Shown here: positions 13,996 to 43,587 of the stretch, piece by piece
How positions within the stretch are numbered: the first letter of the stretch is position 1
How the letters are laid out: the number at the start of each line of letters is the position of its first letter
From: a phage
Reading direction: 5' to 3' (one strand)
Sequence record: PV730299.1
Length of the DNA: 64,000 nucleotides
The notes under the pieces: model-generated
The model's database searches: none
Told to the model about the DNA's origin: nothing
Seen by the model: only the letters and a program-made list of their open reading frames with translations
Made by a program: the position numbers and the translations under genes

Positions 13996-14271
13996 TTAAC
14001 GGCGGAAAGGGCGGTTTGCGTTTTCGCGGTTAGACCAATTCTTTTCAGCCCGAGCGATAGCCGCTGGACTCCATTCGCGCTCCCACTCTTTGTCTACTTC
14101 AGCCTGGTTGGCAGGCTCTACCATTTCAACGCCAGGGAAGTCGCGTGACATGATTTCGCGCAGCTGGGCAGCTGGGGCGGTCTGGGCGTGGATCAATTCT
14201 TCGCCGTCGTAAACCTTGGCCATCAGGTATTTCTGACCGTGGCGGATATATGCGTCGAGAATAATTTTCAT
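13996..14271 (-). CDS. hypothetical protein
   Basis: 92 aa from MKIILDAY; SD AGGAAC; first gene after the promoter at 14320-14348. Confidence 0.55.
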   Translation of the reverse strand: MKIILDAYIRHGQKYLMAKVYDGEELIHAQTAPAAQLREIMSRDFPGVEMVEPANQAEVDKEWEREWSPAAIARAEKNWSNRENANRPFRR

Positions 14272-39522: not shown

Positions 39523-40719
39523 TTACTTTTTAAATAAATTTAGTAGGTTTTTAGAACCAGATGTCGCCGCTTTGGGTTGTCCTTCCCCATTGTATCCAAC
39601 CTTCCCGCGCGGTTTTTTACCTTGCTGTATGGCCTCTACACAACGGGTATATTTCGACAATTCACAAAAGTGGTTTTCTAACTGTTGAACATTCATACAC
39701 TGATCCCAAGGCTCTTCCGCAGACCAGAATTGCTCACGAACATACCCATATTGGGAATACACCGCGTCCTGATTGTCCCGCAACCAGAAGATGCATTCTT
39801 CATGCGTCATGCCATCTTTGTCCTGGAACATCAGATCAATCCCTGCGCGACAGCCTGGTCCAGCAACCGTGAAGTGGTTCTCACTGAAAGGATATCCAGG
39901 AATGTAAGTGAAGTCTACCCAGATCTGATAGGCCAGGAATGGACCAAGCCCTTCGATGTCGTCATACATGCGCTGGTATACTTCCAAAGGAGTACCAAGG
40001 CGCAGCAGGTCATGGAAATAATTTGGATACTTGTTGACGAATGCCTTCAGGGAGCGGATGACACGCATTGGCATGTACGGTTCCCAACCTTCGATGGTGT
40101 AGAAGTCCGGCTCTGCTTCGGCTATCGCCTTGGCTTCTTTATAATCCATGTTCTGGGTTGAACCGTCTTTACAGATCAGATTCACCATCATCCCACCGAA
40201 GCACTGCTCCTTGTGGTTGACAACCATCTCAGGGAAAGCCAGGCATTGCTTCAGGCCGCCCGTGTTGAAGGCATTGGTGAATACCTTACCACCGTCGGCC
40301 TCGAACTTCTGAAGTCGTTCGCGGGTTGCATCGAGGTTGATCTCGGCGAATTCTTTGATCGTCATCGCGCCGCCGATAGCCTGGATTGGATCCCAGAGGT
40401 TGAACATGCGGAACAACACGCAGTTGAACATCTTGTCGGCCATACTCAGAGCATCGTTGTTGACGATGTTGTTGATCAGGTTGAGAGATTGCCTGTCGTG
40501 CTCTCTCCGGACATTACAGAACTTGACCTGCCGTAGTATGGGATTATCAGTCCAAGGAGCAGGAAGGCGCTGGACGTCCTTCTTGACGTGGATCTGATAA
40601 CGATCGCGCATCCATTCGTAAGACAGGCGGGTATGGGTCGGACTGAGAACCGGTTTGGCCGACTTTATCTTTTCTTCACGGACACCGCAGTACGGGACGT
40701 CCAGGGCTTTATCTTTCAT
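39523..40719 (-). CDS. hypothetical protein (398 aa)
   Basis: Uninterrupted ORF; SD AAGAGGATACC-ATG; no family recognised. Confidence 0.65.
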   Translation of the reverse strand: MKDKALDVPYCGVREEKIKSAKPVLSPTHTRLSYEWMRDRYQIHVKKDVQRLPAPWTDNPILRQVKFCNVRREHDRQSLNLINNIVNNDALSMADKMFNCVLFRMFNLWDPIQAIGGAMTIKEFAEINLDATRERLQKFEADGGKVFTNAFNTGGLKQCLAFPEMVVNHKEQCFGGMMVNLICKDGSTQNMDYKEAKAIAEAEPDFYTIEGWEPYMPMRVIRSLKAFVNKYPNYFHDLLRLGTPLEVYQRMYDDIEGLGPFLAYQIWVDFTYIPGYPFSENHFTVAGPGCRAGIDLMFQDKDGMTHEECIFWLRDNQDAVYSQYGYVREQFWSAEEPWDQCMNVQQLENHFCELSKYTRCVEAIQQGKKPRGKVGYNGEGQPKAATSGSKNLLNLFKK

Positions 40720-40730
40720 GGTATCCTCTT

Positions 40731-40765
40731 AGAATACGAAAACAGAGGCCATTATAGCCTCTGTT
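40731..40765 (-). terminator. rho-independent terminator
   Basis: Hairpin AACAGAGGC-N7-GCCTCTGTT followed by TTTCGTATTC on the minus-strand transcript. Confidence 0.6.
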
Positions 40766-40787
40766 GTTTAGTGAATAACCGTATATC

Positions 40788-41660
40788 TTAATCGATACGT
40801 GTCAGTTGGGTGATAGATGATTGCACTGGGCTGGCCACATAGATACGGACGTTGGCTTTCCATTCACCCCAGATCAACGGTAGAGTTGGGAAGTTGTCTT
40901 CATTGAAAACAAACACGGGAATGTAGCTCTCGACTGTTTCGCCAGAGAACGCCTGGAAGCCCATCTTGGTGTATCCCATGATCTCGTCAATAAAATCGAA
41001 CGGAGCGAAGGCAACACCAGCGTGTTCGTTAGAACCGAGCTGGCCTGGAATGGCCGTGCCCGTCAGAATGATTTCGGTGATCTGGCGCTTAGGCTCGGTG
41101 GTCAACATATCAGAGAAGTCAGGCTCTTTGAAGGTTGCCATGTTCTTCAGGAACTTGCCAGCCGGGTACTCTTTGCCGTCGACGGTGATGGTGTCTACCA
41201 CTTTGATGCACGCCTGAGGGAATTCCCCTTCGATGCGTAGACTTTCGCGTGGGAAGCCTTTGTTGTAGTAGTAATCCAGTGCAGGCACAACTTCACCTTC
41301 ATTACGGATGAACTTGCTCATGTTAGAGGCATACACGCGCTGTAGGCATTCGTCACCGTCGAAACCAGCAATATGAGCCACGCCGTCGTTGACTGTTGTG
41401 ATGTCACCCTGGGCATCCATGATCTGGCGCATAATGTCTTTGATGTCGACAACAACGGGTTCTTTCAGGACTCGAGGAGATGCGGCGAACTCAATTTTCA
41501 CCTCGTGGTCGAAATACGCCGCTTCTAGCAGTTCACGAGTTTCTTCCAGCACCAGTTTCGCCTGATTGCGGATCTTACCAAAGTCGGGCGATGTGACGTC
41601 GCCCTTTGCATTACCGAAAGCCAGATTCAGATTCACGTTCTTAGAAAATGTAGTTGTCAT
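40788..41660 (-). CDS. hypothetical protein (290 aa)
   Basis: Uninterrupted ORF between regA and the 398-aa gene; no family recognised. Confidence 0.65.
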   Translation of the reverse strand: MTTTFSKNVNLNLAFGNAKGDVTSPDFGKIRNQAKLVLEETRELLEAAYFDHEVKIEFAASPRVLKEPVVVDIKDIMRQIMDAQGDITTVNDGVAHIAGFDGDECLQRVYASNMSKFIRNEGEVVPALDYYYNKGFPRESLRIEGEFPQACIKVVDTITVDGKEYPAGKFLKNMATFKEPDFSDMLTTEPKRQITEIILTGTAIPGQLGSNEHAGVAFAPFDFIDEIMGYTKMGFQAFSGETVESYIPVFVFNEDNFPTLPLIWGEWKANVRIYVASPVQSSITQLTRID

Positions 41661-41676
41661 GATTTAGCGACTCCAG

Positions 41677-42141
41677 TTATTCGCTTTTTGCCTTTGTAGG
41701 CCGGATGATGTATTTTGGAACCAGTTTCCATTCAGGAACCTGATCGTGTTTAACCACTTTAATGCGAGACATATCGGCTGCTTCAGTGACCTGCTCAGGA
41801 TGAATGACCTTCACCATGTTCCACTGCTCCAGCAGCTTGATGATTCGGTTCATCCTCAGGACATCTTCGCGGTTAAATCCGTTGTAATGCCCGTCCAGCA
41901 TAAATAGATGCTTAAAGTGGACGATATAATACTTGCCACACTTATGAAGAATATGGCAAGTCTGATACAGAGTATTCGGCTCTTGGCGCGTGTTTACCCC
42001 AATTCGACTCAGTGTTTCCTTGATCCCCAGGAATATACCTGGCCGATCTTGGTTCAATTGAACTTCAACCATACAATCAACGATGCTGGCCTCATCGTTG
42101 ACTGCTGAAATATTCAATATGTCTAGCGTATTACGCGCCAT
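41677..42141 (-). CDS. regA: translational repressor RegA-like
   Basis: LYQTCHILHKCGKYYIVHFKHL and PEWKLVPKYIIRP parallel T4 RegA (LYQSCHILQKKGLYYIVHFKEM, HEWKLVPKYTIGN); the ORF carries about 23 extra N-terminal residues relative to T4, true start may be the internal ATG near 42072. Confidence 0.7.
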   Translation of the reverse strand: MARNTLDILNISAVNDEASIVDCMVEVQLNQDRPGIFLGIKETLSRIGVNTRQEPNTLYQTCHILHKCGKYYIVHFKHLFMLDGHYNGFNREDVLRMNRIIKLLEQWNMVKVIHPEQVTEAADMSRIKVVKHDQVPEWKLVPKYIIRPTKAKSE

Positions 42142-42170
42142 GACTCATTCCCCTTTTACAATAGTTTGAA

Positions 42171-42593
42171 CTATTTAGCCTTGCGCGGTTTCGCTTTGGC
42201 GTTCAGCTCAGTGCGTCTCATCTTCTCGCGTATCTCGGCCAGGACTTCCTTCGGCAAGAAACGGACGTACTCCGATGCCTTCTCCATGCTGATGTAGAAG
42301 TACTCTGAGAGTAACTTCACGTCAGGATCAATCGGACCTTTCTTAGACCATTTGTCGTAGCGTTTCCGAGCCGGAATGGTGTAAAAGGCATATGACCATT
42401 GCATCCATGGAGTGATAGCATGTAGCTTATTCATCTGTTGCGCAGCCACTAGAGTGTCTTTGCTCTGAGCTAAACCACGCCGCGTCATAAACGGGTCGAA
42501 TCCTTTCAACACTTCTGGGTCATCAGACCGCAAAAGGTTTTCTTTGCTGCTGTTCAGAGCAGCCAGGTAATCGAACAATCCAAGGGCGGCCAT
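42171..42593 (-). CDS. 62: clamp loader small subunit, T4 gp62-like
   Basis: IPARKRYDKWSK parallels T4 gp62 VPRGKRYGKWAK; located directly downstream of the gp44 homologue; start taken at MAALGLF. Confidence 0.6.
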   Translation of the reverse strand: MAALGLFDYLAALNSSKENLLRSDDPEVLKGFDPFMTRRGLAQSKDTLVAAQQMNKLHAITPWMQWSYAFYTIPARKRYDKWSKKGPIDPDVKLLSEYFYISMEKASEYVRFLPKEVLAEIREKMRRTELNAKAKPRKAK

Positions 42594-42597
42594 AATA

Positions 42598-43587
42598 TCA
42601 CTTCCACTTGATGTTGAGCATGACATTGGTCAGGAAAAACACAGCATGCAGCCAGACATCGCCGACTTGACGGTGTTCAATCTGAGACTGACCACATACA
42701 CACACCAGATCAGGAATAGACTCATTCTGGACCAACATTTGCTTCTCTTTATCCTGTGGTACACAGAACTGGAAGAAGCGGGAATAGAAGTCTTCAGTGA
42801 TATAGTTCTGGTTGTCGGTCACCCACTGCTTCATCCCAGCCCAGTCATTATCCTTCAACATATTCACCAACATGCCCATATCGGCCGATTTTAACACAGC
42901 CAGTGCACGTTCGTCGATCTTGCCGTAAGTGGTGACGTTATCCTGTAGAACACCCATGATGCGGCGGTTATCAGGGAAATGGCGCTTGACAATAGCAGCC
43001 AACACAGGAGGGTCATACTCAACACCTTCGCAGCGAAGGATTTCAGCACAGCGGCGCATGAACTGAAGTTTGACCTCATCAGCCTCGGTCTCATTCCAGA
43101 TAAAGTCGATTTCACGGCAACGAGAGCGCAGAGGTTCGTTCACACGTTGCTTGGCGTTGGTGGTCAAGATGAATGAACAGTTCTTGGAGACCTTCTCCAC
43201 AATACCCTTCAGCGACTCCTGTGCCGCCATAGACAGACGCTCTACTTCGTCGAGGATAACGACTTTGCGGCCACCGAATACGCTCACACCAGTAGAGTAC
43301 TGAATCACGCGGTCACGGATAACGTCGATGCTGTTGTCCAGGGATGCGTTGATCATCAGTGGTTGCTTACAACCGATTTCATTACACACGGCCAGGGCGG
43401 AGGTAGTCTTGCCAGTACCAGGCTGAGGAGAGTAGAACAGCATAGACGGGATGTTGCCGTTGCCGCTGGTGATGTAGCCATGGATTTTAGCGCGGACGTC
43501 TTGAGGGATGATAATCTCGTCCAGGTTGTCAGGGCGGTACTTGTTTTCCCATGCGTACTGGTCGGAAACGATAGTGATATTAGACAT
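42598..43587 (-). CDS. 44: clamp loader large subunit, T4 gp44-like (AAA+ RFC-like ATPase)
   Basis: 329 aa; WENKYRPDNLDEII, Walker A GTGKTT, Walker B ILDEVE, SRC-like SRCREI. Confidence 0.9.
   Translation of the reverse strand: MSNITIVSDQYAWENKYRPDNLDEIIIPQDVRAKIHGYITSGNGNIPSMLFYSPQPGTGKTTSALAVCNEIGCKQPLMINASLDNSIDVIRDRVIQYSTGVSVFGGRKVVILDEVERLSMAAQESLKGIVEKVSKNCSFILTTNAKQRVNEPLRSRCREIDFIWNETEADEVKLQFMRRCAEILRCEGVEYDPPVLAAIVKRHFPDNRRIMGVLQDNVTTYGKIDERALAVLKSADMGMLVNMLKDNDWAGMKQWVTDNQNYITEDFYSRFFQFCVPQDKEKQMLVQNESIPDLVCVCGQSQIEHRQVGDVWLHAVFFLTNVMLNIKWK

Follow-up and report, generated by a model that had tools for sequence, protein, structure and literature searches.

The window analysed here is a stretch of 64,000 bp of phage DNA (sequence record PV730299.1), and all positions given below are those of this stretch unless stated otherwise. 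On its minus strand lie the genes for the gp45 clamp and the gp44 and gp62 clamp loader, with regA immediately downstream (Table 1). The Pfam matches of the upstream neighbours of regA were gp45-slide_C, AAA/Gp44_lid and Phage_clamp_A, respectively. The match to gp45-slide_C was weak (E 0.002, 18.6 bits, under the cut-off of 25), and the annotated relatives agree on a clamp. The order gp45-gp44-gp62-regA was also found in annotated relatives and in one T4-type phage. In T4, regA likewise lies directly after gene 62 in the clamp/clamp-loader cluster, and a position immediately distal to gene 62 is found for regA across T4-related genomes (PMC3014915).

Table 1. Coordinates of the features of the regA locus in the window.
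Feature	Position	Strand	Description and basis
A/U-rich spacer	42142..42170	minus	29 nt, from the gp62 stop (TAG 42171-42173) to regA
Shine-Dalgarno (SD) sequence AAGGGG	42150..42155	minus	8 nt ahead of ATG 42141; anti-SD duplex
regA coding sequence	41677..42141	minus	154 codons and TAA stop (41677-41679); ORF list
regA start codon ATG, long (very probably the real) form	42139..42141	minus	First start after the in-frame TGA
N-terminal extension	42073..42141	minus	Codons 1-23, MARNTLDILNISAVNDEASIVDC; absent from T4 RegA; alignments, pN/pS, AlphaFold2 (AF2)
13-bp mRNA hairpin	42073..42105	minus	GCAGUCAACGAUG[AGGCCAG]CAUCGUUGAUUGU; codons 13-23; ends 1 nt before the internal AUG
Codon 24, internal ATG	42070..42072	minus	Matches T4 Met1; Met/Leu position of strand beta-1
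RegA core domain	41704..42072	minus	Residues 24-146; Pfam Translat_reg and 1REG alignment

The spacing between gp62 and regA is maintained at approximately 28-37 nt among the relatives. In a T4-type phage the regA ATG is located 1 nt past the gene 62 stop, whereas in the window the 29-nt spacer carries a strong SD of its own. No sigma-70-like promoter was found in the region 41400-42700, and no Rfam family matched this region at E <= 1. As no such promoter was found, regA is probably read from transcripts of the upstream cluster and would be co-transcribed with the gp45, gp44 and gp62 genes. The longest ORF for gp62 (42171-42626, minus strand) encodes 151 aa from ATG 42626 and shares 29 nt with the end of gp44. 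In the annotated relatives gp62 starts 33 nt further in and has a length of 140 aa; the equivalent start in the window is at approximately 42593, just past the gp44 stop. The mechanical gp62 start at 42626 therefore probably makes the protein too long.

The product of 41677-42141 had been described as a RegA homologue, and this was upheld by family profile, fold and gene order. The Pfam family Translat_reg (PF01818) matched residues 24-146 over profile positions 1-121 of 122, with an E-value of 2.1e-34 and a score of 118.5 bits (cut-off 25). A phmmer search of the PDB aligned residues 25-146 to residues 2-120 of T4 RegA (1REG; E 4.3e-26). The AF2 model, for which an alignment of 26 sequences was used as input, had a mean pLDDT of 88.1 and a pTM of 0.83. 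When this model was compared to the PDB with Foldseek, 1REG was the sole significant match (E 2.7e-12), with a target-normalised TM-score of 0.88-0.89 and an rmsd of 2.1-2.3 Å over 121 columns. A tblastn search of a phage collection showed that the protein is 100% identical to QVW27183.1, a 154-aa 'translational repressor protein' of Escherichia phage vB_EcoM-ZQ1 (Ackermannviridae, Aglimvirinae). The gene product is a RegA-type translational repressor of an Ackermannviridae phage, whose repressor activity and targets we infer.

To our knowledge, the 122-aa RegA of T4 is the only type that has been studied structurally and biochemically. It belongs to the same Pfam family as the window RegA and has the same fold, with 40% identity over the structural alignment. 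In T4-type RegA the N-terminal Met is also the first residue of strand beta-1 (MIEITL), whereas in the window RegA 23 conserved residues stand before Met24. The alignment to 1REG makes Met24 the counterpart of T4 Met1, with exactly 23 residues preceding it, in agreement with the approximately 23 residues that had been predicted ahead of the T4-like N-terminus. The window protein also has approximately 8 extra C-terminal residues, which are poorly conserved.

In T4 and RB69 RegA, residues K14, T18, R21 and W81 belong to the RNA-binding helix-loop groove, and F106 cross-links to RNA (PMC3014915). Three of these five residues are kept in the window RegA: T18, R21 and W81 are present as T43, R46 and W107, and all three are invariant in our alignment (A1). 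K14 is replaced by Gly39, at a position that varies within the clade (G, S, L, R), and F106 by His132. Since the contact residue K14 is not kept, the operator specificity may differ from that of T4. In the alignment to 1REG, the pair that forms the dimer salt bridge in T4 (R91/E68) corresponds to V118/V94.

Two start codons were compared for regA, ATG 42141 and the internal ATG 42072. For ATG 42141 the best anti-SD duplex was AAAAGGGGA (dG -7.8 kcal/mol), with the GGGG core at 42153-42150 and a spacer of 8 nt. Of the 1270 AUGs on the minus strand, only 1.7% have an SD at least as strong. At usable spacings (4-10 nt), no duplex for ATG 42072 was better than -1.5 kcal/mol (61st percentile), and the sole GAGG in front of it lies 16 nt upstream. 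The original prediction, which had placed the best SD before ATG 42141, was thus correct on this point. Two codons ahead of ATG 42141 the frame is closed by a TGA (42147-42145), which excludes a reading frame longer than 154 aa.

Homologues of RegA were drawn from a set of 5.8 billion proteins, IMG/VR, metagenomes and assemblies. Scanning metagenomes for further relatives yielded only three near-identical sequences of the Ackermannviridae type. An ATG was present at position 1 in the loci of 18 out of 18 diverse relatives, with AGGGG, AGGAG or GGAG located 6-9 nt upstream. Codon 24, on the other hand, varied: of 26 distinct sequences, 8 had CTG, CTT or TTG, including those of the Serratia phage KNP4 group and Salmonella phage CRW-SP2; at the protein level, Leu replaces Met24 in homologues P0004, P0006, P0007, P0012 and P0013. 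Several relatives, with CTG or CTT as codon 24, thus have no start codon at this position. The internal ATG was retained throughout the closest clades (Limestonevirus-like, Kuttervirus and Taipeivirus-like).

Selection on the two parts of the gene was nearly identical. In 17 distinct coding sequences codons 2-23 had a pN/pS of 0.099 and codons 24-154 one of 0.095, and the variable columns of the extension were distributed over the first, second and third codon positions as 3/0/13. Residues 2-23 had a mean pairwise amino acid identity of 0.63, next to 0.62 in the core, and the C-terminal tail reached only 0.20. Both pN/pS and the third-position pattern indicate translation and are unlike what is expected of an untranslated leader. 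Judged from these sequences, the extension is translated and constrained. Two ORFs on the plus strand (41746-41907 and 41908-42108), antisense to regA, were rejected as genes. They are mechanical ORFs only, since the third-position substitution pattern suits the regA frame on the minus strand.

Translation exclusively from ATG 42072 would give a T4-sized protein of 131 aa, and the upstream 69 nt would be an untranslated leader with a role at the RNA level. Although Met24 lines up exactly with T4 Met1, ATG 42072 lacks an SD at a usable distance, and this codon is not a start codon in the relatives with CTG or CTT. A stable hairpin takes up the 33 nt just ahead of ATG 42072, which speaks for this reading, but substitutions in the 69 nt follow the codon positions, with a pN/pS of 0.10 like that of the core, the amino acid conservation of the extension equals that of the core, and the extension is ordered in the AF2 model. 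The RegA of Erwinia phage Bue1 (P0015, 141 aa) is annotated from the internal Met, but in locus L025, which is likely the Bue1 locus, the extension is completely encoded and has an ATG and SD of its own. We therefore regard an exclusively internal start as extremely unlikely. The extended protein is favoured, because the extension is constrained like the core, the upstream ATG and SD are kept and the internal Met has become Leu in several lineages. On these sequence comparisons, the RegA product is very probably the 154-aa form from ATG 42141. The original prediction had offered both alternatives; the extended repressor was supported by the conservation of the extension, the kept ATG and SD and the Leu at codon 24, whereas a start at ATG 42072 was opposed by its poor SD and by the 8 of 26 sequences with Leu at this codon.

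A second possibility is dual initiation, in which phages of the clades with ATG24 would produce a short isoform besides the long main product, helped by the hairpin presenting its GAGG loop near the AUG. The retention of the internal ATG in the closest clades, together with the GAGG in the loop, would leave such a minor isoform a small probability there. The hairpin (42105-42073) has an MFE of -18.0 kcal/mol, and only 1.1% of the 39-nt windows on the minus strand are at least as stable as -15.2 kcal/mol. The sequence GATGAGGCCAGCATC was invariant at synonymous sites in 17 of 17 close relatives, and ATG24, the hairpin and this invariant sequence co-occur in all closest relatives. In addition, hairpin pair 37-57 shows four Watson-Crick types (A-U, G-C, C-G and U-A) across lineages. 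The window hairpin was stabler than 98.5% of the synonymous recodings of the codons 13-23 peptide (z = -2.4), but these recodings already reach -9.5 kcal/mol on average, so that the pairing is largely imposed by the peptide itself. Over 26 distinct sequences the mean z of the hairpin was -0.83, and an unrelated control segment elsewhere in regA gave practically the same value (-0.87). In the same number of sequences the hairpin partners were paired in 81.1% of the cells versus 78.8% with shuffled partners, and RNAalifold predicted no consensus structure for the segment. Three pairs had double changes, a number that was reached in 111 of 500 shuffles.

In T4 genes 38 and 25, RNA structure is able to compensate for a long distance between SD and AUG (PMC3014915), but in these genes the SD is located 5' of the hairpin and not in the loop. 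Neither L068 nor any of the more distant relatives has kept the loop GAGG, and ribosomes coming from the upstream start would hold the hairpin open. Taken together, we consider dual initiation improbable. The hairpin was also rejected as a selected RNA element for the whole set of relatives, as the recoding and shuffle controls showed no selection. That it is a selected mRNA element in the Limestonevirus, Kuttervirus and Taipeivirus clades, for internal initiation of a T4-sized isoform or other intragenic control of regA, is very unlikely. We regard the hairpin as a real local structure in this phage, for which the controls showed no selection across the relatives.

Another hairpin was observed within regA, at 41931-41961 (minus strand, codons ~61-71, QTCHILHKCGKY), with 12 bp and -15.3 kcal/mol. 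It was present only in the Limestonevirus-like lineage (z -2 to -4 versus synonymous recodings) and absent in the Kuttervirus and Taipeivirus-like relatives.

With the 154-aa form as the preferred product, the extension could be described from 16 homologues with identities down to approximately 54%. Its pattern is M[AP]RNTLDIL..SAV..E..I.DC, in which N4, T5, L6, I20 and C23 are invariant and R3, L9, A13 and V14 near-invariant. AF2 modelled two helices in the extension, residues 5-10 (block pLDDT 90) and 17-22 (block pLDDT 78), which run into strand beta-1 (25-29) and then helix A (36-45); the model confidence of the extension comes near that of the core. Packing of the extension on the core is suggested by its conserved hydrophobic residues (L6, I8, L9, A13, V14, I20, V21 and C23), and a functional surface by its conserved polar residues R3-N4-T5. 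It is reasonable to expect that the extension may contribute to, or retune, RNA binding or the oligomeric state.

We propose that translation from ATG 42141, behind the strong SD, would yield a 154-aa protein in which residues 24-146 would form the T4-like RegA fold. Residues 1-23 would form the two modelled short helices that lead into strand beta-1 and the RNA-recognition helix A. Our best guess is that the extension would pack on the core and add to or retune the RNA-binding surface. If it acts as T4 and RB69 RegA do, the protein would occupy A/U-rich, unstructured RNA where translation of phage mRNAs is initiated, in competition with the 30S subunit.

The RegA of Dickeya phage LIMEstone1 is 98% identical to the window RegA, and those of Kuttervirus (e.g. 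SP1 and Mooltan) and Klebsiella phage phi1_146029 are 87-90% identical; the assignment of the latter phage as Taipeivirus-like is our own. The annotated RegA proteins of these Ackermannviridae (vB_EcoM-ZQ1, LIMEstone1, Kuttervirus and phi1_146029) have 154 aa and the same start and neighbours, and nothing of substance differs between them and the window RegA. In the literature searched, no experimental study of these annotated proteins and no discussion of a RegA N-terminal extension were found. All public annotations that were checked give the long form, except that of Erwinia phage Bue1.

Outside this clade, the extension was covered by tblastn and BLASTP alignments to Delftia phage PhiW-14 (32% identity over query residues 2-144) and, at 40-45% identity, to several uncultured large phages. 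In PhiW-14 and several uncultured phages the extension has a similar length and the pattern x-D-[IL]-x ... G-[DE]-x-[IV]-x-P-[YF]-[LM]-V-E-V, whereas the RNTLD motif is confined to the Ackermannviridae-type clade. The RegA of cyanophages (Kyanoviridae, ~131 aa) has only the second half of the extension, with the second helix (e.g. MNVVDSLVEIEL). The RegA proteins of PhiW-14, the uncultured phages and the cyanophages belong to the same family but share just 32-52% identity with the window RegA, and the starts in their records are gene-caller predictions, some of which are doubtful. The number of residues before the ETL anchor was 22-23 in most of the best 120 database matches, compared to 16 in T4 and 41-44 in the Ackermannviridae type. 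Among these best 120 matches, the class with 22-23 residues consists of proteins of ~131 aa, and the named phage relatives of that type are cyanophages.

The extension is conserved among RegA proteins other than that of T4, and the gene and its start were already present in public annotation. Because the extension also occurs in PhiW-14 and uncultured phages, and its second half in cyanophages, the 122 aa of T4 RegA represent the short extreme of the family: a minimal version and not the norm. Many phages outside the Tevenvirinae carry a conserved N-terminal addition beside the RNA-recognition helix. If this addition aids RNA recognition, it could explain why operators differ among the RegA proteins of different phage groups, which is a modest point of interest to specialists. 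For annotation, the result would settle on the 154-aa form as the right one.

Some database entries differ in their starts. In PhiW-14, regA (L004, 1480-1986 of that locus) is annotated from GTG 1546, and the alignment to the extension runs from 1501, with an ATG at 1480. For the Bue1 RegA, with 141 aa from the internal Met, the complete extension (MSSPRNTLDIL), including an ATG and a GGAG, is encoded upstream of that Met in L025 (around 1489). Both the 141-aa Bue1 entry and the PhiW-14 GTG start are probably truncated. A similar ambiguity was seen in regA of Synechococcus phage S-P4 (L122, 668-760), which is annotated with 142 aa and an overlap with the gp62 stop (ATGA), and where an internal AAGGAGG lies approximately 20 nt before the Met equivalent to T4 Met1.

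The A/U-rich leader of regA (42142-42170, minus strand) contains AUUGU. The SELEX consensus for T4 RegA is AAAAUUGUUAUGUAA, with AUUGU as its core (PMC3014915). Strings of AUUGU or resembling AUAUUGUUA were seen approximately 15-20 nt before the start in many relatives, including L003, L005, L024 and L069-L073. The motif in the regA leader that resembles AAAAUUGUUAUGUAA could be an autoregulatory operator, a candidate put forward from the sequence. In a crude search of crudely defined initiation regions, AUUGU occurred in 6 of the 69 such regions of the window versus a background of 3%. A RegA operator motif shared with other genes was rejected, as AUUGU was not clearly enriched in the other initiation regions of the window, and with just 6 of 69 regions no regulon can be claimed.

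Downstream of regA the gene content differs from that of a T4-type phage, in which regA is followed by the DNA polymerase gene, versus a gene annotated as NTP pyrophosphohydrolase in the window. The region 39523-41660 (minus strand) encodes a protein of 290 aa and then one of 398 aa. The 290-aa protein had no Pfam match and is annotated elsewhere as a MazG-like NTP pyrophosphohydrolase; the 398-aa protein is a 5-hmdU DNA kinase (PF18723, E 2e-81). The genes downstream of regA are thymidine-hypermodification genes, as expected of Ackermannviridae.

Elsewhere in the window, a near-identical initiation region with GGAACTATATCATG or GACTATATCATG was present at the starts at 1534, 13973, 25422, 28846 and 51133 (minus strand), and similar regions at 14271 and 38193. 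The genes that share it are mostly small, and a TTTGAA(A/C) motif often precedes it. These shared regions look like a repeated promoter/leader cassette. A TTTGAA-type motif is also located ahead of the gp44 gene, and TTGAAC ahead of the gp45 gene.
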